Origin: Candidatus Kapaibacterium sp.
Lineage (GTDB): Bacteria > Patescibacteriota > Patescibacteriia > UBA9934
Assembly (NCBI GenBank): GCA_044350705.1
Contig: JBILHA010000001.1
Span: 355,431-419,430 of the forward strand
Reading direction: 5' to 3'
DNA length: 64,000 nt
Notes under the pieces: model-generated
Told to the model about the DNA's origin: nothing
Seen by the model: the letters and a program-made list of their open reading frames with translations, nothing else
The model's database searches: none
Position numbers and translations under genes: made by a program
Shown: one piece after another, positions 1-44,247 of the stretch
Numbering within the stretch: the stretch's first letter is position 1
Layout: each line of letters opens with the position of its first letter

Positions 1-1250
1 GCGGCTCATTGATGAGTAGTTTTACCTTTCTATCAAGCAAATCGAGGATCGTTGAATTTTCGTTCAGATTTTCAATCGTATCCCAAAGTAATTTAACTAA
101 AAGGATGTCCTTTGTTTCCGCTAATAATTTTTGATTTTTGGCAGTCAATTTTGTCAGTAATGTCTTTTTGCTCGTCTCATTTTTACCGGAAAAATATTTA
201 TTAATATCATCTTTTGTGAGGTCGTGGATTTTATATTCGGTAATATCCTTGAAATATGTTTTTACTTTTACTTTATTGAGACTCCCAGAGCGGCAAGAAA
301 GTATAATTTTTTTGGTATTATCGTCTTTTTCTAGTTCGTACAAATAGGATAAAACATGGTCGGCTTTTTCGGCACTAAGCTCATCTAATCCGTCCATCAA
401 ATAAATAAACCCCAGTTTTTCATTCCTAACTTTGTAATCATTTTGTCTGTTCCGAATAAGGTTTTCTATAGTATCAAAAGTGCAGTTTTTTAAGTTGATT
501 AACATCGGAACGGCTTTGTTTTTCTGTAAGACTTTTTTAATATCGACCAAACTATTCTTATCTAAACCGGAAAATACTTGAAATAATTTGTGTATGGAAA
601 TGCTTTTACCAGAACCAGGATGGCCTGAAAGTAGAAAGTCTTTTTGTTTTGCCTGCAAAATCTTTTTTGTTATGTCTTCAAGTTTTTCTGTTTTTGAGTT
701 AATAAAAGGAAGGTCAATATATTCAGATGACTGCAAAAAAGTTAAAATTCTTGGATCTGAGCAAGATTTTATAAAGCCAAGTTCATCGCTAAAGTCAAAA
801 TAAAGTTGCGCCAAATCAAGATTTGCGGGTTGGTTCAGCGTCGCTCTGAATTTACTATCAACAAACCATTCAATTTTTATTTTCCCCGCCACTTTTTCAA
901 TATCATCCTTATATTTTGGTTGTTCGCTACCAAAAGATTGATGAGTGAAAATTATAATTCGGTTGAGTTTTTTATAATTTTGCCTCGCTTTTTCTACTGA
1001 TTTCTTAATTTGTTCAATGGAACTAGCTTCTGAAATTTTATTATCAAAAAACTTTGCTTGAAACCCCACATATTCATCTTTTTCATGATCAAAAATCGGA
1101 TATGTCTCAAGTCCAACTTGATTATAATCAACCCGTATCCCTTCTGATTTGGAATATCTGCGACAAAACAAAAAATATGCAAGTTCTTCAAAGCTTTTTC
1201 TATAATCCTCGTTCCTTACCTTGAACTTTTCCCAGCTTATTTTTTGCATA
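1..1250 (-). CDS. STAND NTPase (NACHT-like) with N-terminal Mrr-like PD-(D/E)xK nuclease domain; partial, C-terminus lies outside the window
   Basis: Absent from the ORF track because it has no stop in the window. Manual translation from ATG at 1250 reads MQKISWEKFKVRNEDYRKSFEELAYFLFCRRYSKSEGIRVDYNQVGLETYPIFDHEKDEYVGFQAKFF... with no stop down to position 1. Motifs: Walker A LLSGHPGSGKS, Walker B hhhhDGhDE as IYLMDGLDEL about 68 aa later, and NACHT hhhTSR-type motif IILSCRSGS about 30 aa after that. The N-terminal FEELAYFLF...GLETYPIFD...GFQAKFF resembles the Mrr catalytic core (D...QxK). Confidence 0.6.
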
Positions 1251-1282
1251 ATTACAGCGATTTTCTGGATCTCATTGAGTAC

Positions 1283-1321
1283 CTATACTTTACTATTGTT
1301 TACATGCTTAGTAAAGTATAG
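1283..1321. promoter_or_regulatory. Perfect 13-bp inverted repeat (ctatactttacta-N13-tagtaaagtatag) in the divergent intergenic region, ending 2 nt before the 1324 start codon; putative operator
   Basis: Read directly from the sequence. It lies between the divergent NACHT gene (start 1250) and the 1324 ORF. Confidence 0.4.
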
Positions 1322-1323
1322 CG

Positions 1324-2133
1324 ATGAATATAACTACACAGGCTGAACAAAAACTCATCGTCCAATTTCAAAAATGGTTTGAAACCGAAGAAATCGAGAC
1401 GAAGGTTTTGGAATTAAGGCAACAGATTGGGATACCATCCGAGGGTATTCCCATTACCGACGAAGATTTGAAGCAAATCGGTAGCTTGACCCTAACTCCA
1501 CAAAATCTACCATTCACAGAACGTAGAAAAGTAACCAAGTGTCTTCGTGAATGCTTCGCTGGCACGAGGGAATTTTTAGAAGCACGGCCGCTATTGAATA
1601 ACATGTATTTCAAGCATGTTCTACGGGCATATATCTTGTTTAATAAATTTCTGCTCGATGATGTACGCGCGGCGTTACCAATCGCTCTAAGACTCACGAA
1701 CTTGTGCGACATTAACGATGCGAAGGAAAATATTGAAGAGTATCTTGGTGCTGAAGAAGAGGAATGCAACGATCCAGAGATGCGAGAAATGTATATCGAT
1801 TCGCAAAGATCATTAACCGATCTTTTTCCAATTGCACTTAACATTCATCCAGAGTCAAGTCAACGAGATATTGTTGATTTCATCAAGAAAAACTGGCCAT
1901 ACATTAAAGCTCTACAAGAACGGCGAAAGAACGAAAACTCCAGAGTTCTTCACTCGCGAACCAAAATTAACGAATCAGTTAAAGAACGGAATAAATTGAT
2001 AAACACATGGCACAAAGATGGAATGCGCACTAAGGACATAAGGAAAAAGCTTGCAAGTCAACACCTATTCTTAGATGACGGTCACATTTTGAAGATAATT
2101 TCGATGGCGCGGAAGAAGCGTGAAGGGAAGTGA
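1324..2133 (+). CDS. hypothetical protein (island cargo), predicted mostly helical, no recognisable catalytic motif
   Basis: 269-aa ORF with AT-rich codon usage matching the island. Divergent from the NACHT gene. The antisense ORF 1368-1844 is considered spurious. Confidence 0.5.
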   Translation: MNITTQAEQKLIVQFQKWFETEEIETKVLELRQQIGIPSEGIPITDEDLKQIGSLTLTPQNLPFTERRKVTKCLRECFAGTREFLEARPLLNNMYFKHVLRAYILFNKFLLDDVRAALPIALRLTNLCDINDAKENIEEYLGAEEEECNDPEMREMYIDSQRSLTDLFPIALNIHPESSQRDIVDFIKKNWPYIKALQERRKNENSRVLHSRTKINESVKERNKLINTWHKDGMRTKDIRKKLASQHLFLDDGHILKIISMARKKREGK

Positions 2134-2264
2134 GGTGCAGATAGATTCTGAGCGTCACTTTTTTCTTAGATAAACCATTGTTAACCGGAATAAGCTGAGT
2201 GCAAATGCACTTGGCTTTTATGCTAGAGGATCAAAACTTAAAACCAATCGAAGAGGAGGCGTCA

Positions 2265-2357
2265 ATGCCAGAACTTCCCGAGATAGAAAATCTCGTCGGG
2301 TTTTTTGATCTTCTCATTACAGTCGACAGGCGACTTAACCCTGAACGATATGATTGA
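2265..2357 (+). CDS. 30-aa leader ORF (MPELPEIENLVGFFDLLITVDRRLNPERYD) with strong SD; its stop overlaps the ATG of the downstream gene (ATGATTGA), suggesting translational coupling
   Basis: gaggagg at 2252-2258, five nucleotides, then ATG at 2265. The TGA at 2355-2357 overlaps the candidate ATG at 2350 of the Rep-like gene. Confidence 0.3.
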   Translation: MPELPEIENLVGFFDLLITVDRRLNPERYD

Positions 2358-3468
2358 TACCGTCTGTCTTTCTTTGCCATACAACAGCCTTGTACTTCTT
2401 GATGAAAACAATGAAGCCGTCCCGCAATGGGATCTACAATCTAAGACTGATAATTACTCAAAGTATGTTAGGAATCCTTCCAAGGCTGATAAGCGATCGG
2501 GGCTGTATTTTCCTCGTCTCACGATTTATCGACGTAGATTCGGTCAACAGCCGAGTGTTAAGATTGAGTTTTCTGTTCCAAAGTTAATTTTTAACAACAA
2601 CTTAGAAGAACTATCTGACAAGTACTTTGATCAAGTGATCGATATTTTACAGGAACGACTTCAAAAAATGGGCGTTCGTGTTTTTAAACAGGTTTTAGCC
2701 TCAGCTCCAATTTCAACAATACACTTTTCAAAAAACTTTTCTCTGAGTGATGGTTATACGGCGAGTTACGTTATTTCGGAGTTACAAAAAATCGATTTGA
2801 GAAAGAGTTTCGATTTTGCCAGAGCTAGGTATATCAACAATGGCCAAAGCATCTGTGCCCACACACGGTCACACGAGCTAGTAATCTACGACAAGATCGC
2901 TGATCTTGGCAAAACAAAGAAACGTGCAATAGACAAAGATCAAACAGCGATTCAACTTAGTCTCTTCGACTCCTTGAAATCAAAATATGAATTGGTAGAG
3001 GTTCTCCGTGTTGAAGTGCGTTTATGCAACAAACAGAAAATTAACAGCATCTTCAAGAAGCTGAATATTCCACAAGACCCCACATTTCAAGACGCATTCA
3101 GTAGCAAGGTAAGCAAGGCGGTCATCGATCAGTATTGGGAGTCTGTTGTTAAGGCGGGTCAGATTGCTCTATTCGCAATTGATAAGCCAGCGAAGGAGCT
3201 TTTACGAGAAATGTGCAGAGGGGATCCCAATTTAAAACCCAAGCAAGCGATCTACCAGGTCGGGTTAACGTTACTCGCCAAGGATGGTGACGGATTAACT
3301 GAGCTAAGAAGTATATTTGACGATCGGACAAACGACCGAAGCTGGTACCGAATCAAAAATGATTTCAACCAAATATCCGCCAACATCACTTCGCAACAGA
3401 TCCGCAGCTGGGTAAATCAAATAGAGAAACAGATCAGAACTTATTCACCCATAAAAGTAATAAAATAA
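2305..3468 (+). CDS. hypothetical protein, possibly a Rep_trans-like rolling-circle replication initiator or relaxase (weak, by context); likely true start is ATG 2350
   Basis: 387-aa ORF; the track start is TTG at 2305. It sits immediately upstream of the small ORF, the excisionase and the serine recombinase. No motif could be verified by eye. Confidence 0.45.
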   Translation: MIFSLQSTGDLTLNDMIDTVCLSLPYNSLVLLDENNEAVPQWDLQSKTDNYSKYVRNPSKADKRSGLYFPRLTIYRRRFGQQPSVKIEFSVPKLIFNNNLEELSDKYFDQVIDILQERLQKMGVRVFKQVLASAPISTIHFSKNFSLSDGYTASYVISELQKIDLRKSFDFARARYINNGQSICAHTRSHELVIYDKIADLGKTKKRAIDKDQTAIQLSLFDSLKSKYELVEVLRVEVRLCNKQKINSIFKKLNIPQDPTFQDAFSSKVSKAVIDQYWESVVKAGQIALFAIDKPAKELLREMCRGDPNLKPKQAIYQVGLTLLAKDGDGLTELRSIFDDRTNDRSWYRIKNDFNQISANITSQQIRSWVNQIEKQIRTYSPIKVIK

Positions 3469-3469
3469 T

Positions 3470-3733
3470 ATGGACTGGTTATACATAATTTGGACAGAAA
3501 CATTTCAGCAATTCGCATCGGATAATCTTGGAAGAGAATTGACTGATATTGAGTTAAATCGACTTAGAGTGGCGTTTATTGATAACGACGACGCACAATG
3601 GCAAGTGGCAGATATGATGTATAGCGCTGGAATAGATGCAATGAACAACGCAAGAGGACGATGGAATTTGGTTGATGAAGGTTTCAAGAATGGAAAGTCG
3701 TTGTTTGGTAATTTGATATGTAAAGAAAAGTAA
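3470..3733 (+). CDS. hypothetical small protein (island)
   Basis: 87-aa ORF tightly packed between the Rep-like gene and the excisionase gene. Confidence 0.4.
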   Translation: MDWLYIIWTETFQQFASDNLGRELTDIELNRLRVAFIDNDDAQWQVADMMYSAGIDAMNNARGRWNLVDEGFKNGKSLFGNLICKEK

Positions 3734-3736
3734 AGT

Positions 3737-3931
3737 ATGATGAGTGTAGATATGAGCGATCAACAAGGAAAGTTTTACAAGGCCGAAGAACTTGCAGAGA
3801 TGTTGCAGGTAAATATTATGACGATTTACCGCTACATTAAGTCTGGCAAACTTCAAGCATACAAAATTGGCAAGGAATACAGGATTGATAAAAAGACGTT
3901 TGATCAGTTTTTAAAAAGCGTAAGAACATAG
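3737..3931 (+). CDS. excisionase/Xis-like HTH_17 (MerR-superfamily) DNA-binding protein
   Basis: The sequence EELAEMLQVNIMTIYRYIKSGKLQAYKIGKEYRI matches the HTH_17 excisionase-type motif. It lies immediately upstream of the recombinase. Confidence 0.6.
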   Translation: MMSVDMSDQQGKFYKAEELAEMLQVNIMTIYRYIKSGKLQAYKIGKEYRIDKKTFDQFLKSVRT

Positions 3932-3933
3932 AT

Positions 3934-5502
3934 ATGAAGGCAGTTATTCTTGCACGAGTGTCCACCGAAGAACAAAAGGATGCTGGTAATTCACTTCCAG
4001 CACAGATTCAACGCATTGAATCCTACTGCAGGCGTCAGGGGTTTGAAGTCGTTGAAACGTTCAGCTTCGATGAGAGTGCCTACAAAACTAAGCGTGACGA
4101 ATTCGATAAGATCATTGAATTCCTAAAACAAACGGACGAGAAAATCGTCGTTTGTTTCGATAAGGTCGATCGACTATCACGCAACGTCTTTGACAAGCGA
4201 GTATCCGAACTGTACGAAAAGGCTGTCTCAGATGAGATTGAACTTCACTTCGTGTCCGATGGACAAGTGATCAATAGCCAGATGTCAGCTGTTGAGAAGT
4301 TTCAATTTGGAATGAGCTTGGGATTGGCAAAGTATTACTCAGACGCTATCAGCGACAATGTGCGGCGAGCGTTCGAACAGAAGCGACGTAAAGGCGAAGT
4401 GACTGGTCGATGCGTTCTTGGATATATTAATATTGACGACTTTGAAGGAAACAAATCACTAAAGCCTGATCAGAAGCGTGCGCATCTTATTGTAAAAATC
4501 TTTGAGCTATATTCGACTGGCCTATACTCGATAAAAACCATTCAACAGAAAATCACTCAGCTTGGTTTGTTGAGTCGTGCTGGAAAAGAGTTGACGAAAA
4601 GTACTATAGAACGAATTTTGAATGAGTCGTTTTACTACGGCATGTCTTACTCTCAGAAATATAACGCCTATTATCCGCACAAGTACGAAACGCTGATCAG
4701 TAAGGCTCTCTTCGATAAGTGCCAGCACGTAAAGCTTAAGCGTAAAAAAGCCCCTAGTAAAAACATCGACAAGGATTTTATCCTTGCGGGCTTACTGACT
4801 TGCGAGCATTGCGGATGCACGATCTCGCCCGAGTTCAAACGTAAACCAAGCGGTAAGACCTACAAACTGTATAGCTGCACGAACTCTAAAGGAATCTGTA
4901 AACGTCGTTACGTCAATGAGGATGATCTGCTTAAGCCGATCTATGGCATTTTCGATCTCTTCGAGCAGATTACCGACGAAATTCAGAACCGCCTCATAGA
5001 CGAACTGCGCAAGACCTCTGAAGCTGAGCTTGCATTCCACAAATCTCAGATCGCTCGCATCCAAATGGAGCATGGCAAGCTGACGGATAGGAAGAGCCGA
5101 TTGCTCGACGCCTTCCTCGATCAGAGTATTACTAAGCCAGATTATGACAAAAAGTTGCAAGAGATCATGGACCGCATCCAAACACTTGCCATGGAAATCG
5201 AAGAACATTCTCGAGCAGACCATGATTACAAAACGACGGTAGCCACGGTACTTTCCGTGGCTCGTCGTGCCAATGAAATCTTTGAAGGTGCTGAATTGCA
5301 CGAGAAACGTGAATTCATCAATTTCCTCGTTCAGAACCCGAAATTAAAGGATAGGGAATTGGTCTTCGAGCTGAAACATCCAATGAATACGGTACTAGAA
5401 TTGGCTCACTACTCATCCCAAAAACAAAAAGCGACCAGTATTTCTACTGATCGACCTTCTTGGCTCCGGGGCTGGGGCTCGAACCCAGGACCAATTGGTT
5501 AA
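3934..5502 (+). CDS. large serine recombinase (resolvase catalytic domain, recombinase domain and C-terminal zinc ribbon)
   Basis: The N-terminal MKAVILARVSTEEQ carries the catalytic Ser in the conserved ARVST context. The zinc ribbon reads CEHCGC...YSCTNSKGIC. Total length is 522 aa. The 3' end overlaps tRNA-Asn. Confidence 0.85.
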   Translation: MKAVILARVSTEEQKDAGNSLPAQIQRIESYCRRQGFEVVETFSFDESAYKTKRDEFDKIIEFLKQTDEKIVVCFDKVDRLSRNVFDKRVSELYEKAVSDEIELHFVSDGQVINSQMSAVEKFQFGMSLGLAKYYSDAISDNVRRAFEQKRRKGEVTGRCVLGYINIDDFEGNKSLKPDQKRAHLIVKIFELYSTGLYSIKTIQQKITQLGLLSRAGKELTKSTIERILNESFYYGMSYSQKYNAYYPHKYETLISKALFDKCQHVKLKRKKAPSKNIDKDFILAGLLTCEHCGCTISPEFKRKPSGKTYKLYSCTNSKGICKRRYVNEDDLLKPIYGIFDLFEQITDEIQNRLIDELRKTSEAELAFHKSQIARIQMEHGKLTDRKSRLLDAFLDQSITKPDYDKKLQEIMDRIQTLAMEIEEHSRADHDYKTTVATVLSVARRANEIFEGAELHEKREFINFLVQNPKLKDRELVFELKHPMNTVLELAHYSSQKQKATSISTDRPSWLRGWGSNPGPIG

Positions 5503-5535
5503 CAGCCAACTGCTCTACCACTGAGCTACCCCGGA
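5461..5535 (-). tRNA. tRNA-Asn (anticodon GTT), CCA encoded
   Basis: Reverse complement folds as a canonical cloverleaf: acceptor UCCGGGG/CCCCGGA, D arm GCUC-AGUGGUA-GAGC, anticodon stem GUUGG/CCAAU with loop CUGUUAA, T arm CUGGG-UUCGAGC-CCCAG, discriminator G, then CCA. Confidence 0.9.
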
Positions 5536-5971
5536 ATAGAAAGTTTTGTAACGGGACATAGGATAACAAATGCTCCTTTCTCGTGCAAGGTGAAGATGGG
5601 AAGAAAATATTTCTCTGCGTCGCTTTGCGATGTGATCGCCTATGGTTTGAGGATGTTTGAGGCAGAAACAAAAAAACAAGCCAGTAAAGGTTTGCTTTTT
5701 TGGGGAGCGGTTTGCTTACTTTGCGTTTGCAGTAGCTTCCAATTTGCGCATGCGGATTGCCTTTGCCTTGCGGCGTTTTGCAAATCCGTCTTCACGCTTG
5801 ATGGCAAAAGCGGCATTTTGCGCTTTGCGGGAAAGTTTATGGCGGGATGGCATAAGAGGTAAAAACAATGCAAAGATACTACTTTATTCACCAACTTTGG
5901 TCAAATCTTTCCAAGAGTTTATGGGGAAAAGTGCTTGACGGAATGTCATTTCTTCGCCAAAACAGGGACAT

Positions 5972-7468
5972 ATGCATATTGCCGTTTCAAAAGGCCGTCT
6001 CTCGCAAAGCGGTGCTGAGGTGTTGGTTGTTCCGGTTCTTTCGGGAAAGAGCTTGGCGGGAATTCCGGTATTAGGAAATGATGCGCTGCGACGCGCGGAA
6101 CGTCTGGCAAAGGCGCAGGATTTTACGGGAAAGGCAGGTGAGGTTCTTTCCCTTCCGGCACCTGAAGGGCATGGCGCTGATGTACTGTTGTGTATTGGGG
6201 TGGGAGAGAAGCGTTCCGCATCTTTTTTGGATGCAGTCCGAGATATGGGCGGGAATGCGGTGCAGGTTGCAAAAAAGATGGGCCTTCGTACGATTGCTGC
6301 TGATTTCTCTGCGAAGGAAATGATGCATGCGGATGCGGTGGAAGCTTTTGTGACCGGTATTCTTTTAACGAATTATGCGTTTGATGCGTATAAAAAACAA
6401 AATGGCGCTAAGCGTGTTGCGGAGGTAGATATCCTGCTCCCGGATAGTCGCATGACGCTTGTGCTCCGCAAAACCATCGAGCGTGTCCAGGGGGTGATGG
6501 CGGGCGTGAATATCGCGCGCGATCTCGTTAATATCCCCGCGCATGACATGACACCTGAGCGTTTGGCGGAAGCTGCACAAGAAATTGCAAAAGAATCCGG
6601 AGGAACGATTAAAGTAAAGGTCCTTGAACGTGCGGAGTGTCAGAAGCTGGGTATGGGCGCCTATCTTGCGGTTGCGCAGGGTGCTGATCGTGATCCAAAG
6701 TTCATCACGCTTTCTTATACTTCTCCGCGTCCTGCAAAAAAGAATGTTGCGGTTATTGGAAAGGGAGTGACGTTTGATTCGGGGGGATTATCCATTAAAC
6801 CTGCGGATAGCATGATGACCATGAAGTGTGACATGGCAGGTGCCGCAGCGGTGATCGGATTGTTTGCGGTACTCGGCAAACTCCGTCCTCGGGTAAACAT
6901 TCGTGGGTATATCGCGGCAACGGAAAATATGCCTTCCGGAAACGCGGTTCGCCCAGGGGATGTGGTCCGCTCCATGTCAGGCAAAACGATTGAAGTGCTC
7001 AATACGGATGCAGAAGGTCGTCTCACGCTTGCGGATGCGCTTACCTATGCGTTGCGCGAAAAGCCGGACATGATGGTTGATCTTGCTACTCTTACCGGTG
7101 CTTGTATGGTAGGACTTGGAGAAGAGATCGCAGGTCTCATGTCAAATGATCGCGGTCTTGCGAAGGATGTACTCAAGAGCGCGAAAGATGCGGGAGAGAA
7201 GTTGTGGGAAATGCCGCTTGAACCGCGCTACCAGCAACTGATTCAAAGTGATATTGCTGATTTGCGGAATATTGCAACCAGCAGATATGGAGGATCGCTG
7301 ACCGCTGGACTCTTTTTGCAAGAATTTGTGGAGGAGACGCCATGGGCGCATCTTGATATCGCAGGTCCTGCGTTTGCGGAGCGACCCATGGGCGTATGTC
7401 TTCAGAAGGGCGCTACGGGATATGGAGTACGGACGCTTTGGAAGTGGGTTGAGGGGATGGGGAAGTAG
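5972..7468 (+). CDS. pepA: leucyl aminopeptidase (M17 family)
   Basis: M17 signature NTDAEGRLTLADAL plus the conserved VGKGVTFDSGG region. Confidence 0.85.
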   Translation: MHIAVSKGRLSQSGAEVLVVPVLSGKSLAGIPVLGNDALRRAERLAKAQDFTGKAGEVLSLPAPEGHGADVLLCIGVGEKRSASFLDAVRDMGGNAVQVAKKMGLRTIAADFSAKEMMHADAVEAFVTGILLTNYAFDAYKKQNGAKRVAEVDILLPDSRMTLVLRKTIERVQGVMAGVNIARDLVNIPAHDMTPERLAEAAQEIAKESGGTIKVKVLERAECQKLGMGAYLAVAQGADRDPKFITLSYTSPRPAKKNVAVIGKGVTFDSGGLSIKPADSMMTMKCDMAGAAAVIGLFAVLGKLRPRVNIRGYIAATENMPSGNAVRPGDVVRSMSGKTIEVLNTDAEGRLTLADALTYALREKPDMMVDLATLTGACMVGLGEEIAGLMSNDRGLAKDVLKSAKDAGEKLWEMPLEPRYQQLIQSDIADLRNIATSRYGGSLTAGLFLQEFVEETPWAHLDIAGPAFAERPMGVCLQKGATGYGVRTLWKWVEGMGK

Positions 7469-7529
7469 TTGGGTTGAAGAAAAGAGACTTTCGACGTATG
7501 CTGTCTTTAGTCTTTTTTCTTATCTTGTT

Positions 7530-8765
7530 ATGCATCCTGTCTTCAAAAATACGTACGTTTTTACGGCTATTGGTGCCATTGTCCTTGGCGCACTTCTTTA
7601 TGGAGGGAAGCAGTATCTTGCTGCGCGTGAGCTCGCACGTCTTGAGGAAAATCGTATCGAAGGTGGATGGTATGAGACGCCGGTTTCTTTTGAGGGAGCA
7701 TGGCACCTCGTTCCTCCGGGTGAGATTTATTCTTCTGGTATTGAGGAGGGGGATATTCCTGCGCTCACACAGCCAAATCTCATGAGCGTTGATGAAGCGG
7801 ACGACGTTATTGCTGATGACCTTGGAGGTATCGCGGTAGAAATCCAGGGCAAGCATCGCTTTTATCCGGTGCAGATCATGAATTGGCACGAAGTCGTGCA
7901 CGATACCATTGGTGGGGAATCCGTTTTGGTGTACTACGGACCGCTTACCGGAGCTGCGGCAGTGTATCGGCTTCCAGAAAATATGCGTTTTGTGGTGAGT
8001 GGTCGTGGGTATAACAACGATATCCTTTTGAAACAGGAAGGTACTGAGACCCTTTGGTCCGGCATTTTGGGTATGCCTGTTGTAAGCAGCCGTGAAGCTG
8101 ACCTTGATGCATCTCTTGAGCGCCTTCCATCTTCTTTCATGACTTGGAAGGAATGGCGTGATGCACATCCCGATGGAACGGTTCTTTCTACGGATACCGG
8201 GCATGCGCGCGACTATACACGTCATCCTTACGGAAATTATGAAAATTCCGTTGGCGTATATTTCCCGGTAAATCGTACGACCTATTCCGTTCGTGCAAAA
8301 GAACCTGCATATCTTGTGCAAAGCGAAGGTGCATTTGGTGTTTTTGTTAAAACTGCAACGATACTTGATGAAACTCCGTCGGTTCTTCTTGGAGATGCCT
8401 GTATTGTTGGCTTGCATGAAGCATCTGGCTCGCAAATTTTCTTGTATTCTTGTGAAGTGAATGGCCGTACGCTTACGTTCCGTCGTGTTGAACCGGGTGT
8501 ATTTACCGATGAAGAAACGGGTTCTCGTTGGAATGCATCGGGCCGCGCAGTATCCGGTGAACTTACGGGTGCGCAACTTACCGTTGTTCCTTCAGTACGC
8601 TTGTATAGTTTTATTGCCGATGCATTGTTCCCTCAAGCGGTAATTGCGGGTGAGGAATTTGTACTTCCGCAAACACTTTCTGAAGATGAAATTTCCTCCG
8701 CTGATAATGCTCCGGTTATAGAAGGAGAGAATGTTGATGGTGCAACGGTTGAAGTTGTTCAGTAG
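7530..8765 (+). CDS. DUF3179 domain-containing membrane-anchored protein
   Basis: N-terminal TM helix MHPVFKNTYVFTAIGAIVLGALLY. The core HEVVHDTIGGESVLVYYGPLTGAAAVY...FVVSGRGYNNDILL...TGHARDYTRHPYGNY fits the DUF3179 pattern. The track ORF starts earlier at 7326 and overlaps the pepA end. Confidence 0.6.
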   Translation: MHPVFKNTYVFTAIGAIVLGALLYGGKQYLAARELARLEENRIEGGWYETPVSFEGAWHLVPPGEIYSSGIEEGDIPALTQPNLMSVDEADDVIADDLGGIAVEIQGKHRFYPVQIMNWHEVVHDTIGGESVLVYYGPLTGAAAVYRLPENMRFVVSGRGYNNDILLKQEGTETLWSGILGMPVVSSREADLDASLERLPSSFMTWKEWRDAHPDGTVLSTDTGHARDYTRHPYGNYENSVGVYFPVNRTTYSVRAKEPAYLVQSEGAFGVFVKTATILDETPSVLLGDACIVGLHEASGSQIFLYSCEVNGRTLTFRRVEPGVFTDEETGSRWNASGRAVSGELTGAQLTVVPSVRLYSFIADALFPQAVIAGEEFVLPQTLSEDEISSADNAPVIEGENVDGATVEVVQ

Positions 8766-8779
8766 CGCTTAAGAGCAGA

Positions 8780-9472
8780 ATGTATACCTGTATGCTCTAT
8801 ATCGTTGCTACTCCCATTGGAAATAGAAACGACATCACGGAGCGAGCGAAGCAAACGCTCGCTTCTGTTGATGTTGTGCTTTGTGAAGATACGCGTGTTA
8901 CGGCGAAGTTGTGTAGCATGCTTGAAATTCAGCCTACGCTTCATACCTTTCACGAACATACCGACGATCGCAAGCGTGGAGAGATTGTTGCGCAACTTGT
9001 TGCAGGAAAGAGCATGGCGCTTGTGAGCGATGCGGGTACGCCGGGGATTTCTGATCCGGGAGGCATGCTTGTTGCTGATGCGGTAAAAGCGGGAGTTGAA
9101 GTTGTTCCGATTCCGGGAGTATCGGCGGTTGCTACGGCGCTTTCAGTTTGCGGTTTTCCTACAGCGCGTTTTACGTTTGTAGGATTTCCTCCCCAAAAGA
9201 AAGGACGAGAAACATTTTTTAGAGAGCTTGGAGATATTGCGCATACGATCGTGCTGTATGAGTCTACGCATCGCATTGAGAAAACGATTGAAGCGCTTGG
9301 TGTGCTTGGTCGTCGGTTGTGTGTTTGTCGAGAGCTGACCAAGATGCATGAGACGATTTATCGAGGTACTGCATCTGAAGTTCTTGCCGCGCTTGCAAAA
9401 ACAAGTACGAAGGGGGAGTTTGTGATTGTGGTCGCTCCTCGTGTTCGTGAAAGTATTGAAGTTGTTGAATAA
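8780..9472 (+). CDS. rsmI: 16S rRNA (cytidine1402-2'-O)-methyltransferase
   Basis: LYIVATPIGNRNDITERA...VDVVLCEDTRV matches the tetrapyrrole-methylase fold typical of RsmI. Confidence 0.8.
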   Translation: MYTCMLYIVATPIGNRNDITERAKQTLASVDVVLCEDTRVTAKLCSMLEIQPTLHTFHEHTDDRKRGEIVAQLVAGKSMALVSDAGTPGISDPGGMLVADAVKAGVEVVPIPGVSAVATALSVCGFPTARFTFVGFPPQKKGRETFFRELGDIAHTIVLYESTHRIEKTIEALGVLGRRLCVCRELTKMHETIYRGTASEVLAALAKTSTKGEFVIVVAPRVRESIEVVE

Positions 9473-9480
9473 AAAAAATC

Positions 9481-9519
9481 CCCCACACGACGTCGCCGTT
9501 CGCGAACGTTCGTGTGGGG
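9481..9519. terminator. 10-bp perfect stem hairpin (ccccacacga...tcgtgtgggg) preceded by an A8 tract; rho-independent terminator for the minus-strand gene 9534-9944, possibly bidirectional
   Basis: Read directly from the sequence. Confidence 0.5.
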
Positions 9520-9533
9520 TACGTTGACCTAGA

Positions 9534-9944
9534 TTAGGCCTCGTCGTTTTTTCCCCCACGTCCTGCCGCGGGGGTGAGAGCGTCATCCGGGGGGAGGATG
9601 ACGAATGGGGCCACTGGCAAATTTACCGTCGGCAACATTCTCGACGGAAGTTTCTCGTATACGGCTTTCAGAGCTTTCGTGGCCTCTTCCTTATGTTTCC
9701 CCTCAGCGATCCGCCTTTCGATGAGTCCGAAAAGCGTCTCCATGTTCCCACCTCCCCAGAAGTAAGTGCTGATTGCACCTACAGCCTCAGTGATCTTTCC
9801 CTGTATGATGAGGTGACTGATCTCCTCAACGACCTGATCAATGTCGCTCGCCTCCGCCGCGGTGGGGGTGAGCACCATCATCACCGCGGGGGTGATGGGG
9901 GCGAGGGCGAGGACGATGCGGAGGAGGGCGGGGGCGATCTTCAT
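9534..9944 (-). CDS. small secreted protein (signal peptide MKIAPALLRIVLALAPITPAVMMVLTPTAAEA); function unknown
   Basis: SD GGGAGA lies 6 nt before ATG at 9944. The 5' half is GC-rich. The promoter is supplied by 48-bp repeat copy 1. Confidence 0.5.
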   Translation of the reverse strand: MKIAPALLRIVLALAPITPAVMMVLTPTAAEASDIDQVVEEISHLIIQGKITEAVGAISTYFWGGGNMETLFGLIERRIAEGKHKEEATKALKAVYEKLPSRMLPTVNLPVAPFVILPPDDALTPAAGRGGKNDEA

Positions 9945-10541: not shown

Positions 10542-10629
10542 GGTGAACTCCTGCCTTTGGGTAAGAAACCCGAGGCTTCCAACGAAATGTCACTTCTTTG
10601 ACGAAATTGCCATTGAACGTGACATGTTT

Positions 10630-10677
10630 TTATACCATATTTTTAGCTTTTTTTCAAGTATTTGAAGAACGAGCTTC
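10630..10677. repeat. 48-bp direct repeat copy 2; minus-strand TTGAAA-N17-TATAAA promoter upstream of gene 10182-10541, in the divergent region shared with metG
   Basis: See copy 1. Confidence 0.6.
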
Positions 10678-10735
10678 TTTCCAGTACGATTTCTTGCATC
10701 ATCTTGATTCCCGTTTTTTAGCACTTTTTCTTCCT

Positions 10736-12223
10736 ATGTCTCGTTTTATTACCGCTTCTATTCCTTATGTAAATTCCACACCGCATGTGGGATATGCACT
10801 TGAGCTCATTCAGGTCGATGCGCTTCTTCGGTATTACCGCACACGAGGCGAGGTAGTTCGCGGGCAATTTGGCAGTGATGATAATAGTTTGAAAAATGTG
10901 CGTGCGGCGAAAGAGGCAGGGGAGACGACCGAGGCGTTTGTTGCACGACATGCAGAAGAGTTTCGTAAGCTTTCCGATATTCTTCAGCTTGATGCATCGG
11001 TGCGTCACTTTATTCGAACGCGAGATGACGTGCACATGCGGGGTGCGCAGAAGCTTTGGAGCATGTTTCGACCTGAAGACATCGATAAGCGTTCGTACGA
11101 AGGGTTGTACTGCGTAGGTTGCGAGGCTTTTTATTCGCAAGAAGATCTTCTTGAAGGAAAGAATTGTCCTACGCACAAGAAGCCAGTTGAAGTTATTCAA
11201 GAAGAAAATTATTTCTTCAAACTTTCCAATTATCAATCTTTTTTTGAGGAGTTGCTTACACAGGGTGTTGCAACGTGGCAGGGAAAGGAGCATCGCATGA
11301 CGATTGTTCCTGAAGAGCGACGTAATGAAATGTTGGCGTTTGCCAAGAAGTTGGAAGACTTTAGCATTTCGCGTTCCGTGCAACGTGCAGAAAACTGGGG
11401 AGTTCCTGTTCCGGGCGATGAAAGTCAGGTGATGTATGTATGGGTTGATGCGCTTTCGAACTATATTACCGGCTTAGGTTTTGCTGATGACGCACAAGAA
11501 TTTGCAGAATTTTGGACGAACGCTGATGTACGAACGCATGTTATTGGAAAAGACATTGTGCGCTTCCATGCAATTTATTGGCCAGCCTTTTTGCTTTCTG
11601 CAGGTCTCCCACTTCCTACCGAGATTTTTGTGCATGGCTTTCTTACGGTTGAAGGGGAGAAGATGAGTAAGTCGTTGGGCAATGTGGTGCGCCCGCAGGA
11701 GATGATTGATGTGTACGGTGTTGATGCGACGCGATATTTGCTTCTTCGTGATCTTCCCTTGGTGGGAGATGGTGATATTTCAAAAGATCGACTTGAGGAG
11801 CGCTATAACGAACTTGCAAATGGATTGGGGAATTTGGTTGGACGTGTTGCCGCCATGGCGAATAAGTATTTTGACGGTGTGCTTGATGTGGTTGATGTGC
11901 ATTATGCTGGATTTGATGCCGCATTTGCTGATGTACTGCATGCCGCACTCACGTCTCGTGATTTCAAGCGATATCTTGAGATTGTGCAGGATTTGGTAGG
12001 CGTTGCGAATAAGAAGATTAATGATGAAGAGCCGTTCCGAACCGCAAAGACCGATCTTCTTGCATGTAAGAAAACACTTTCCGAAGTTGCGGCGATGATT
12101 CGTGCGATTGCTGAAGCATATGCGCCCGTCATGCCTTCAATGAGTGCAGAAATCCTTGCGCGGTATAATGGTGAAAAGATTATTCACGGAGAGCCGTTGT
12201 TTCCGAAGCGAGACGAAGCATGA
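10736..12223 (+). CDS. metG: methionyl-tRNA synthetase, compact form (496 aa) lacking the C-terminal tRNA-binding domain
   Basis: N-terminal MSRFITASIPYVNSTPHVGY is HIGH-like and a KMSKS motif is present. The track ORF starts upstream at 10598. Confidence 0.9.
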   Translation: MSRFITASIPYVNSTPHVGYALELIQVDALLRYYRTRGEVVRGQFGSDDNSLKNVRAAKEAGETTEAFVARHAEEFRKLSDILQLDASVRHFIRTRDDVHMRGAQKLWSMFRPEDIDKRSYEGLYCVGCEAFYSQEDLLEGKNCPTHKKPVEVIQEENYFFKLSNYQSFFEELLTQGVATWQGKEHRMTIVPEERRNEMLAFAKKLEDFSISRSVQRAENWGVPVPGDESQVMYVWVDALSNYITGLGFADDAQEFAEFWTNADVRTHVIGKDIVRFHAIYWPAFLLSAGLPLPTEIFVHGFLTVEGEKMSKSLGNVVRPQEMIDVYGVDATRYLLLRDLPLVGDGDISKDRLEERYNELANGLGNLVGRVAAMANKYFDGVLDVVDVHYAGFDAAFADVLHAALTSRDFKRYLEIVQDLVGVANKKINDEEPFRTAKTDLLACKKTLSEVAAMIRAIAEAYAPVMPSMSAEILARYNGEKIIHGEPLFPKRDEA

Positions 12224-41206: not shown

Positions 41207-42670
41207 ATGGATATTCGCACACGAATTGCCCCTTCTCCAACGGGATTTATGCATATTGGTACGCTTCGTACCATTTTGTGGGACTATTTTATGGCCCGTC
41301 AGGCAGGCGGCTCATTTATCATCCGCATTGAGGACACCGATCAAGAGCGGTATGTACCGGGGTCTGTTGAAGGATTGCTCCAGGCTCTTACGCGCGTTGG
41401 AATTGACTGGGACGAGGGGCCGGTGCTTCTTCCTGATGGAAGTTTGGGAGAGAGGGGGGCTCTCGGTCCTTACACCCAGACCAAGCGTCTCGATATTTAC
41501 GCAAAGTACGCCCAAGACCTTTTGTCTGCTGGGCATGCATACCACTGTTTTTGCTCTCCTGAACGTCTTGAAGAAATGCGCGCGGAACAAATGGCGCTCA
41601 AGCAGACGCCCAAGTATGACCGTAAATGCCTTTCGCTGAACATTGATGAAGTTGTCGCTCGACAAGCCGGGGGAGAGAAGTCAGTTATCCGCATGAAAAT
41701 GCCCGAGGGAGAAGTAACATTTGACGACGCAATACGTGGACGCATTTCTTTTGATCTGAAAGACGTTGATGACCAAGTTATCGTAAAGAGCAATGGTATT
41801 CCTACCTACCACCTTGCGGTGGTCGTTGATGATTACCTCATGAAGATTTCACATGTGCTTCGTGGGGAGGAATGGCTTTCTTCTACGCCTAAGCAAATTG
41901 TGCTGCATCACATGCTCGGTATTCCGATGCCGGTGTATGCGCACGTACCTCTTATCCTTAATCCAGATAAGACCAAGCTTTCAAAACGCAAGGGCGATGT
42001 TTCTGTAACGAGCTATTTGGAAAAGGGATATCTTCCTTCGGCTCTTCTTAACTTCCTTGCTACGCTTGGTTTTAATCCTTCCGCCTCTCAGGAGATCTTT
42101 ACTCTTGACGAGCTTATCAAGGCATTTGATATCTCGCGCGTCAATAAAAGCGGCGCGGTCATGAATATTGAGAAGCTCGACTGGATGAATAAGCAGTATC
42201 TCGTAGCCATGGGGGAGGGGGAGTATCTCGCGTATGCTCAGCAGTTTACCTCTGCTGATTTATCAGATCCTTTCATGCGCCGTGCAGCCTTGGTCGATAA
42301 GATGCGTGTCAGTCGGTTGACTGAATTAGCAAACATCCAGGAACAGTATTTTACGACGCAACAAATTAACCAAGAAGACCTTTTGGGAAAGAAGGGAAGC
42401 GCTAATACTGTAAAGGATGCACTCGAACGCATGGAAAAGCTTGTCACGTCTTTGCGTGATGAAACATTATCCGCACCTCAGCTTATCGAGGGTGAAATAA
42501 AGACGTATATTACCAATGAGGGTCTGCAGACGGGGTTGGTGCTTTGGCCGCTTCGTGTAGCACTATCCACACGTCTTCAATCTGCAAGTCCATTTGAGTA
42601 TCTGTATATTCTCCAGAAGGATGAATCACTCAAGCGTATCCGTGCCGCGCTCACTCTTTTTGGAGCTTAA
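41207..42670 (+). CDS. gltX: glutamyl-tRNA synthetase
   Basis: RIAPSPTGFMHIGTLRT (HIGH) and KLSKRKGDVSV (KMSKS-type). The track ORF starts upstream at 40991. Confidence 0.9.
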   Translation: MDIRTRIAPSPTGFMHIGTLRTILWDYFMARQAGGSFIIRIEDTDQERYVPGSVEGLLQALTRVGIDWDEGPVLLPDGSLGERGALGPYTQTKRLDIYAKYAQDLLSAGHAYHCFCSPERLEEMRAEQMALKQTPKYDRKCLSLNIDEVVARQAGGEKSVIRMKMPEGEVTFDDAIRGRISFDLKDVDDQVIVKSNGIPTYHLAVVVDDYLMKISHVLRGEEWLSSTPKQIVLHHMLGIPMPVYAHVPLILNPDKTKLSKRKGDVSVTSYLEKGYLPSALLNFLATLGFNPSASQEIFTLDELIKAFDISRVNKSGAVMNIEKLDWMNKQYLVAMGEGEYLAYAQQFTSADLSDPFMRRAALVDKMRVSRLTELANIQEQYFTTQQINQEDLLGKKGSANTVKDALERMEKLVTSLRDETLSAPQLIEGEIKTYITNEGLQTGLVLWPLRVALSTRLQSASPFEYLYILQKDESLKRIRAALTLFGA

Positions 42671-42673
42671 ACT

Positions 42674-43873
42674 ATGAAACTTTGGAGGAAAGTAAGTTTA
42701 TTGGCGCTCATGCCACTTTTGGTACTCAGTATCCCTCAGGTGCTTGTTGCTGCCACGGAAGAGGTAAAAGAACTCCAGGCTGAGATCCAAAACAAAAAAG
42801 CACAGGTAGAGAGCATGAGTAAGCAGCTTGACGAGTACCGTTCACGTATCGCGGAATATCAGAAGAAGGCCGTTTCCCTTGCTGGAGACGTTGCCCTTCT
42901 TGAGAATGAGCAAGCGCTTGCGGAGCTTGATATTGCGGCAACACAAACCGAGCTTGAAGCCGAAGAACTAGAGATTCGTCTTCTCCAAGAGCAAATGATG
43001 AACACTGATGCTGAACTCGCAACCCAGCAAGCCCTTTTAGAAGATGTGCTCTTTGCGCTGCACAAACAGGATATGCGCGGAGGTCCTCTTGAGGTAGTTA
43101 TCGGTGCGAATGATTTTGGGGATGTATTTCGTGCCGCTTCTCAGCTTGCAGACATGAATACTGATCTGCAAAAGGCGCTTGCGGCCACTCAAGAAACTCG
43201 CAATACCCTTGATGAGCAAGAGGCTAAGCGTGAGGCGAAAATGGCCATGCTTGTTGAATTAGCACAACAACTCCGGAAGAAGTCAGAAGCTCTTGAGGCT
43301 ACAAAGAATGCGAAGGTTGTGCTCATGAGCCAGACACAAGAGTCAGAGAATGAGTACCGCGCCCTCATAGGGAAGTTAAGGCAAGAGCAGCAGGCAGTTT
43401 CTTCACGTATTGATGAGTTGCAAAGTGAAGTAGAGCAAAGGCTTGCAGCGGAGACTGGAGAAGTTTCTGCGGTGACTGCCATTACTTGGCCTTTATCCGG
43501 TCGCATCACCGCAACATTTCACGACCCTACATATCCCTTCCGCAATCTTTTTGAACACTCCGGTCTCGATATCGCAGTAGCCCAGGGGACTGCTGTTGAA
43601 GCCGCGGCACCGGGAATTGTAGCTTGGGCGCGTACAGGTGTGCAGTATGGTAATTATGTGATGATCATCCACGCTAATGGTTTGGCAACATTATACGCTC
43701 ACATGTCACGACTGGACGTTGTGCAGGATCAGTATGTTTCCCAAGGAGAAGTTATTGGTCTTTCTGGAGGGCGTGCAGGATCGCCAGGTGCGGGGTTTTC
43801 TACGGGGCCCCATTTGCACTTTGAAGTACGCGAGGATGGTATTCCTGTAGATCCATATCGTTACCTCCCATAA
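42674..43873 (+). CDS. M23 family peptidoglycan metalloendopeptidase with N-terminal signal/anchor and long coiled coil (EnvC-like)
   Basis: C-terminal HxGLDIA...YGNYVMIIHANGLATLYAHM...GPHLHFEV. Confidence 0.8.
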   Translation: MKLWRKVSLLALMPLLVLSIPQVLVAATEEVKELQAEIQNKKAQVESMSKQLDEYRSRIAEYQKKAVSLAGDVALLENEQALAELDIAATQTELEAEELEIRLLQEQMMNTDAELATQQALLEDVLFALHKQDMRGGPLEVVIGANDFGDVFRAASQLADMNTDLQKALAATQETRNTLDEQEAKREAKMAMLVELAQQLRKKSEALEATKNAKVVLMSQTQESENEYRALIGKLRQEQQAVSSRIDELQSEVEQRLAAETGEVSAVTAITWPLSGRITATFHDPTYPFRNLFEHSGLDIAVAQGTAVEAAAPGIVAWARTGVQYGNYVMIIHANGLATLYAHMSRLDVVQDQYVSQGEVIGLSGGRAGSPGAGFSTGPHLHFEVREDGIPVDPYRYLP

Positions 43874-43910
43874 AATGTGAGGCCCCGTAGTGAGGCCTCA
43901 CATTTTATTT
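43872..43910. terminator. 13-bp stem hairpin aaaatgtgaggcc...ggcctcacatttt followed by ATTTT
   Basis: Read directly from the sequence. Confidence 0.75.
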
Positions 43911-44247
43911 TGTAAATAGAGCTAATCCCTATAGGACCCCTAAATCAACCCAGGCCATTTAAATGCGTTGTCCAAATGGAGCCTTCTGAAGCCTCACGAT
44001 GAACATCTTGGAATTGATGTTGCGCCAAGTATCTTGTAACGGCTTGGCATGTCTTGGTGACAAACCCCATTTGCTAGGTGAGAGTACCCGTTGATCCTGC
44101 TAACTATCTTAGGTAGAAAACTGGCTATGGTTCGTAAATGATATATTGTACGACTCAACCGAATACACAACATCATAAACAGAAAACACCCAAAGGATGC
44201 CCCTCAGGTGTTTCCCTACTCTACCCGTGGAGATTACCATCTGGGCA

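Follow-up and report, generated by a model that had tools for sequence, protein, structure and literature searches.

A nuclease-headed NACHT protein on a serine-integrase island of a Patescibacteria chromosome: a candidate antiphage STAND receptor

At its left edge the window, by which we mean the whole 64,000-nucleotide stretch of DNA that was analysed, holds the beginning of a gene for a 1,412-aa protein that probably acts as a single-gene antiviral receptor of the STAND/NLR-like type: a ligand bound on its helical solenoid would release the NACHT module, ATP-dependent oligomerisation would pair the nuclease heads, and degradation of DNA would abort the infection. This reading draws on an intact open reading frame, domain homologies, conserved residues, a single-gene organisation and a context of defence genes and mobile elements.

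The open reading frame and recovery of the complete gene

On the minus strand the frame that starts with the ATG at 1249 (cat at 1247-1249) continues for 416 codons without a stop to base 2 of the window, in a segment (1-1249) of 32% GC whose other five frames contain 14-54 stops each. When the segment was shuffled 1,000 times, the longest open run was 74 codons on average and 161 at most. The uninterrupted frame to the window edge that an earlier note on this DNA had described thus lies far beyond the shuffled controls; its start codon had been placed one base off, at 1250, from where a frame full of stops is read. The motifs quoted in that note were all found in the translated frame at the spacings given, with FEELAYFLF at aa 20-28, GLETYPIFD at aa 46-54 and GFQAKFF at aa 62-68, and the gene was indeed missing from the ORF track, as ORFs that run off the window are left out of that listing.

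Neither a scan of genome, viral and metagenome collections with exact 50-mers from the window edge nor a near-identity search that compared DNA from the end of the window with E. coli genomes, phages and plasmids gave a match. The whole gene was recovered by exact look-up of the neighbouring 269-aa protein, which led to three public contigs, L050, L051 and a 187-kb JGI/NCBI contig; the window is 100% identical to L050 over 12,133 bp and to L051 over 5,411 bp. On both contigs the complete gene is a single uninterrupted ORF of 1,412 aa, the first 416 aa of which are the window fragment, so that the window holds about the first 30% (the 5' third) of the gene. A stop or frameshift, which the earlier note had wanted looked for in the extended contig, is not present in this ORF. 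In L050 the entire gene occupies 5688-9926. In NCBI, JGI and Logan the full protein (P0040) bears no annotation beyond 'hypothetical protein'. The two parts of the gene are:

2..1249, minus strand: N-terminal 416 codons of the single-chain STAND protein (open frame, identity to the N-terminus of the L050 ORF)
L050 5688-8678: remaining 996 codons, beyond the left edge of the window, continuing the same ORF

An Avs4-type nuclease head

The N-terminal part of the protein comprises:

770..1249, minus strand: Avs4-type PD-(D/E)xK (Mrr-like) nuclease effector domain, aa 1-160 (PADLOC, NCBIfam, profile, Foldseek, conservation, model)
1187-1189, 1106-1108 and 1052-1060, minus strand: candidate catalytic residues E21, E48 and Q64-x-K66, respectively
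653..769, minus strand: helical linker between nuclease and NTPase, aa 161-199 (still aligns with EcAvs4; secondary structure from the AF2 model)

The Avs4 models of both PADLOC (4e-35, aa 1-225 only) and NCBIfam (5e-34, 116.8 bits on NF041815, the match spanning aa 6-350) recognise the fragment. A search of the PDB with the single sequence missed Avs4, and a family profile was needed to find it: the profile of 19 family members matches EcAvs4 (PDB 8DGF) with E=5.9e-35, profile positions 1-220 aligning with residues 1-248 of 8DGF up to a point just past the Walker A motif, and 8DGF is also the best Foldseek match of the AF2 model. On these alignments aa 1-225 are clearly homologous to the Mrr-type nuclease head and linker of EcAvs4. 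The literature labels that head as Mrr ('EcAvs4-Mrr-portal, PDB 8DGF') and describes how the heads pair into active sites on tetramerisation.

E22, E49 and Q63-x-K65 of EcAvs4 align with E21, E48 and Q64-x-K66 of the window protein, which bears out the 'QxK variant' that had been proposed from the fragment. Conservation among 50 full-length relatives is at least 96% for F20, E21, C29, R30, E48, P51, G62, F63, Q64, K66 and F68, and the AF2 model (pLDDT 89.4) shows the α-β-β-β-α-β core of PD-(D/E)xK enzymes, with helices at 16-31 and 75-91 and strands at 52-54, 59-66 and 95-102. The earlier assignment of an Mrr/PD-(D/E)xK core therefore stands with respect to homology with the EcAvs4 Mrr nuclease, but not with respect to Pfam Mrr_cat (PF04471), which gives no match to the fragment at E<=10. 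A glutamine in the (D/E)xK position is atypical, and the predicted activity leans on the precedent of EcAvs4, in which Q63 and K65 are reportedly the catalytic residues that were mutated.

The NACHT NTPase module

The nuclease head and linker are followed by:

2..652, minus strand: NACHT NTPase module (NBD and start of the helical domain), aa 200-416, cut by the window edge
602..625, minus strand: Walker A / P-loop GHPGSGKS, aa 209-216, with K215, read from the sequence (G209, P211, G212, G214 and K215 at least 96% conserved)
377..406, minus strand: Walker B and NACHT signature IYLMDGLDEL, aa 282-291, with D286-G-L-D-E290
281..307, minus strand: Sensor-1-type motif IILSCRSGS, aa 315-323, with C319 and R320

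The D286-G-L-D-E290 stretch is invariant in the family, in the set of 19 as well as in that of 50 relatives, and C319, R320, G322 and N325 are at least 96% conserved among the 50 full-length relatives. A D[GAS]hDE pattern in Walker B is the signature that parts NACHT proteins from other STANDs (Kibby et al.). Pfam NACHT (PF05729) is the best match of the fragment, at 21.3 bits below the gathering threshold of 26.7; it matches 14 of the 19 family members at E<=0.001, and among full-length relatives the score passes 26.7 in Lacibacter (28.8 bits) and stays below it in Neobacillus (22.8) and Magasanikbacteria (21.9). In the high-confidence AF2 model the module adopts an NBD-HD-WHD fold, the nearest structures to which are the NACHT modules of animal NLRs. 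The winged-helix region, which lies beyond the window, carries a near-invariant YQHRRYQ motif with a conserved H507, which seems reminiscent of the conserved WHD histidine of NLRs.

Judged from its motifs and modelled fold, the protein belongs to the NACHT clade of STAND NTPases. The STAND/NACHT identity given in the earlier note is accordingly retained on account of the Walker A motif, the invariant DGLDE and the NLR-like fold, with the Pfam NACHT match sub-threshold on the fragment and above threshold in one full-length relative. None of the curated defence models (PADLOC 2023, NCBIfam 2026) covers the NTPase or the sensor; matches to NCBIfam EruA and to PADLOC mad3 and mad8, at 14-26 bits, were put down to generic P-loop/NACHT similarity.

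A conserved C-terminal solenoid

The remaining ~850 aa form an all-α solenoid that has no close solved relative. In the AF2 model of P0058, a relative 82% identical to the window protein (pLDDT 87.5, pTM 0.80), a winged-helix element is followed by about 55 helices. The C-terminal TPR repeats that the earlier note had suggested looking for were not found by Pfam, and the region is better described as a non-canonical alpha-solenoid.

When residues 417-1412 were used as query, 120 proteins were returned. The C-terminal region is confined to one architecture, because the full-coverage matches are nearly all 1,330-1,445 aa long, the rest being fragments. With a mean identity of 49% the sensor equals the nuclease head in conservation; that it is conserved rather than diversifying, and shows no recognisable ligand, counts against the reading as an immune receptor.

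Two near-invariant polar loops, RHGWxKD at aa 1054-1060 and TDxxxTxxG at aa 1103-1111 (L050 ~6594-6767), stand out from the otherwise moderately conserved solenoid. They may form a putative ligand-binding site.

A family of uniform size across many phyla

A genome scan gave 32 relatives among species representatives, hosted by CPR lineages, Bacteroidota, Bacillota, Acidobacteriota, Gammaproteobacteria, Brocadiaceae, Ignavibacteriae and one Methanomassiliicoccales archaeon. Among 1.84 billion representatives at 50% identity, 96 proteins were found at E≤1e-30 and 259 at E≤1e-10, the full-coverage matches being 1,320-1,440 aa long; a separate second tier consists of proteins of 1,500-1,600 aa, the size of Avs4, which match aa 1-225 only. 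By sequence comparison these full-coverage proteins form a family of their own, which comprises about 100 clusters at 50% identity, keeps to a uniform length of ~1,400 aa and is spread over many phyla. RefSeq names its members, among them WP_144884962 of Lacibacter and WP_066083879 of Neobacillus, both cultured organisms, 'NACHT domain-containing protein', and the literature searched yielded no experimental report on any of them.

Several relatives in metagenome-assembled genomes are split by changes of frame (L001-L004, L010, L011, L029, L037), and at one locus (L005) all that is left is a remnant of 237 aa, which covers a third of the query with 91% identity. These cases raise the question of whether the gene has lost its activity or is in decay, on the way to becoming a pseudogene. 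That the window gene is intact over 1,412 codons with all motif residues kept, and that at least 22 of the 32 relatives from the genome scan have it as one intact ORF of 1,327-1,419 aa, makes such decay hardly credible.

The homologues of ~550 aa are frame-split copies. In one subclade (L001 9640-9660; L002-L004; P0006, P0007, P0008) the split falls at the same position and separates a 552-aa from an 862-aa ORF, which overlap as ATGGACAATAA; this is how the junction in L001 reads. The stop falls at one residue in three diverged homologues, and so this may be a two-gene form that is inherited and tolerated, not a fault of assembly. For the family as a whole, a two-gene system of a ~550-aa protein and a second ORF was considered and set aside: in L001 the downstream ORF of 862 aa lines up collinearly with the unsplit proteins (47% identity, E 5e-120), and those at least 22 of 32 copies, like the window gene, are single ORFs.

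The integrative island and its host chromosome

To the right of the STAND gene the window shows the remainder of an island and the beginning of the host chromosome, and L050 supplies the genes on the other side:

1250..1323: divergent intergenic region of 74 bp, with the presumed promoters of the STAND gene and the 269-aa gene
1324-2133, plus strand: 269-aa ORFan
2305-3468, plus strand: 372/387-aa ORFan
3470-3733, plus strand: 87-aa ORF
3737-3931, plus strand: 64-aa HTH_17 excisionase-like gene (Pfam, PHROGs)
3934-5502, plus strand: 522-aa large serine recombinase (integrase; Pfam, PHROGs)
5461-5535, minus strand: tRNA-Asn (GTT), the probable integration target, overlapping the last 42 nt of the serine recombinase gene
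from 5972: pepA, the first host gene (host side ~50% GC)
L050 1554-4820: 1,088-aa ORFan, convergent to the STAND gene
L050 5051-5554: 167-aa protein with a weak N-terminal match to a superinfection-exclusion PHROG

The STAND gene, at 33% GC against ~50% for the host, is low-GC cargo of a ~13-kb serine-integrase island located at tRNA-Asn in a Patescibacteria (CPR) chromosome. That the host belongs there is indicated by MetG (metG 10598-12223), whose named relatives, at 56-80% identity, are all Patescibacteria, Parcubacteria or Uhrbacteria; the host contig extends to 509 kb. The extent of ~13 kb is tentative, as is the left end at L050 1108-1141, about 7.5 kb left of the window start, where the best, though degenerate, match to the 3' part of the tRNA-Asn on the other side is found; 9 of 200 shuffles gave an equal match. 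A serine integrase at least 90% identical is annotated in another Patescibacteria MAG, which suggests that the element circulates within the CPR.

The island proteins of 1,088, 269, 372 and 87 aa have no credible match in Pfam, PADLOC, PHROGs or the PDB. The 1,088-aa protein could be a further defence gene; compared with the R-M enzymes that adjoin relatives of the STAND gene, it showed no homology.

A scan of 1250..1323 for sigma-70 promoters and terminators gave no match. In the same intergenic region two 12-bp arms, TATACTTTACTA / TAGTAAAGTATA, at 1284-1295 / 1309-1320, form a perfect inverted repeat around a 13-nt spacer, and a related 21-nt copy lies at 3718-3738, just upstream of the 64-aa HTH_17 gene. 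The inverted repeat may be the operator for a regulator encoded on the island.

Further into the host chromosome the cumulative GC skew changes sign near 43 kb (~42000-44000), where the orientation of long ORFs turns from mostly plus to mostly minus; this could be the replication origin or terminus.

Genomic context of relatives and proposed function

The flanks of 31 family loci were searched for a conserved partner gene and none was found; the commonest neighbour is a large serine recombinase, at 6 of the 31. The 'divergent uncharacterised gene' that had been pointed out beside the STAND gene is present as the 269-aa ORFan, but in view of these loci it is not a conserved partner. One relative (L052) lies directly downstream of a Type III Mod/Res pair (973-5317), those in L055/56 directly downstream of a Type ISP/IIG fusion enzyme with GmrSD nearby (L055 2897-6055, 15150-16229), and a degraded copy (L005 3002-3926) sits amid methylase and GmrSD fragments. 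The loci of the closest relatives are typical defence islands. Effector, STAND NTPase and helical-repeat sensor in one polypeptide, together with R-M, GmrSD and mobile-element neighbours, place the protein, by architecture and context, among Avs in the broad sense. The proposal of an antiphage candidate on a mobile island gains from this context, namely the serine recombinase and HTH_17 genes of the island and the R-M and GmrSD genes beside relatives. Since 50,697 phage genomes yielded no member of the family, and 72,556 plasmids none at full length, the support for the antiphage reading is of the 'guilt by association' kind. The real avs4 genes borne by plasmids match aa 1-225 only, with 28% identity.

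The island setting can also be read in another way, in which the gene serves a selfish or other function of the element, be it as an addiction or exclusion module against competing elements or as a NACHT-type regulator. The gene is carried by an integrative element that encodes a serine recombinase and an HTH protein resembling excisionases and that has a foreign GC content, the adjoining 167-aa protein has its weak superinfection-exclusion match, and some bacterial NLR-like proteins are regulators. The effector here is a nuclease, however, and not a DNA-binding HTH domain; most loci are chromosomal, without a recombinase and beside R-M systems; and antiphage genes normally travel as cargo of mobile islands, so that this alternative, which largely overlaps the main reading, is in itself unlikely.

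As an antiviral receptor the protein would combine three modules: an endonuclease of the PD-(D/E)xK 'Mrr-type' with predicted E-E-QxK residues, a NACHT switch with K215, D286GLDE, R320 and H507 as candidate key residues, and a putative sensor in the ~850-aa solenoid. It would rest as an autoinhibited, nucleotide-bound monomer until a phage-derived protein, or a host protein perturbed by the phage, binds the helical sensor. The NACHT module would then open and permit ATP-dependent oligomerisation, the nuclease heads would pair to form active sites, and indiscriminate degradation of DNA would end in abortive infection. Nuclease activity, oligomeric state, abortive outcome and trigger are here modelled on Avs3/4/7/8 and bNACHT25.

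With respect to significance, a coherent family of ~1,400-aa proteins is defined for which annotators give a partial 'Avs4' match or 'NACHT domain-containing protein', and the partial match could mislead annotation to Avs4. Modular exchange is plainly seen in the family, where an effector head of the Avs4 type sits on a NACHT chassis. A serine-integrase island has brought a 4.2-kb gene for a putative immune receptor into a streamlined Patescibacteria genome, which bears on the way in which CPR bacteria, whose known defences are few, deal with phages. Phage-gene library screens of the kind used on Avs families could be aimed at the trigger and the conserved sensor loops, which make a testable target.

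Comparison with known systems

EcAvs4 (AVAST type 4; 8DGF, an Mrr nuclease followed by a STAND module and a TPR-like portal sensor) shares with the window protein the homologous head and linker (aa 1-225), the aligned E/E/QxK residues and the organisation as a stand-alone gene for a single chain of effector, NTPase and helical sensor, at ~1,570 versus 1,412 aa. Beyond the linker the two differ. The NTPase and the whole sensor of the family match no Avs4 model; the NTPase has the NACHT D-G-h-D-E and is structurally nearest to animal NLRs, and the sensor is unlike that of 8DGF. The full-length window protein scores 114.9 bits on the PADLOC Avs4 model over aa 1-225, full-length relatives score 117.5-151.1 bits on NF041815 over aa ~1-225 only, and the full-length protein together with four full-length relatives covers a range of 106-151 bits on Avs4 models, always over aa ~1-225, which is one tenth of the 1,500-bit equivalog cut-off of NF041815. 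The protein was consequently not classed as Avs4, as neither a full-length score at the cut-off nor a sensor of the portal-binding Avs4 type was found. Avs4 is the sole match in the defence libraries, 8DGF is the top PDB match by sequence profile as well as by Foldseek, and the overall sizes are similar; set against the differences in NTPase and sensor, these likenesses leave it highly unlikely that the protein is a bona fide, divergent Avs4 orthologue with a sensor for the portal protein.

The NACHT proteins bNACHT25 and bNACHT32 are validated as antiphage, with a required PD-(D/E)xK DNase effector and dependence on DnaJ (Kibby et al.). The window protein might belong to this group (clade 6, PD-(D/E)xK, NACHT and NCH1) and be activated via host DnaJ instead of by direct binding of a phage protein: nuclease, NACHT and helical C-terminus follow in the same order, and weak profile similarity extends over the NTPase core (hhalign 76%, E 2e-5; 148 columns). 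The sequence similarity is confined, however, to generic P-loop and Walker B segments; the nuclease domains are of different subfamilies and do not align; and bNACHT25, at 752 aa with a short NCH1 tail, is half as long as the 1,412-aa window protein with its ~850-aa solenoid. Without a homologous REase head, and with 1,412 versus ~750 aa, the protein was not assigned to this group, and a place within it is quite improbable.

Nuclease and NACHT follow in this order also in the clade-2 'REase+NACHT' or 'Mrr_cat+NACHT' proteins, a recurrent architecture with 14 entries in Table S1 (Kibby et al.); the family accessions and species checked against the part of that table covered here were not present there. 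A 2026 preprint of the Gao lab counts at least 90 Avs families, including Avs8A (PD-lambda-4) and others with Mrr heads, and has Avs8A and its kin activated by a conserved phage protein fold, with degradation of DNA as the outcome. An Mrr-type nuclease joined to a P-loop/STAND NTPase is common to these and to the window protein. Avs8 is a two-gene operon, whereas the window family has no conserved partner gene, and the PADLOC PD-Lambda-4 model gave no match to either the fragment or the full protein. The NACHT modules of the animal NLRs NLRP3, NOD2 and NLRC4, although nearest in fold, are only 12-17% identical in sequence, and the animal proteins carry a PYD or CARD effector in place of the nuclease and an LRR sensor in place of the alpha-solenoid.

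One may go further, to a doubtful though not far-fetched extension, and see in the family an unnamed Avs/bNACHT lineage that would join an Avs4 nuclease head and an animal-NLR-like NACHT switch to a new, unusually conserved solenoid, the polar loops RHGWxKD and TDxxxTxxG of which would bind a trigger new to STAND receptors, such as a host factor, a small molecule or a protein of a non-tailed phage; the family would then count as one of the few large receptors of innate immunity to move between ultra-small CPR bacteria, other bacteria and archaea. The class itself, the nuclease-armed STAND/NLR-like receptor, is already established, and the window gene is an uncharacterised and architecturally ordinary member of it, not a new kind of system.
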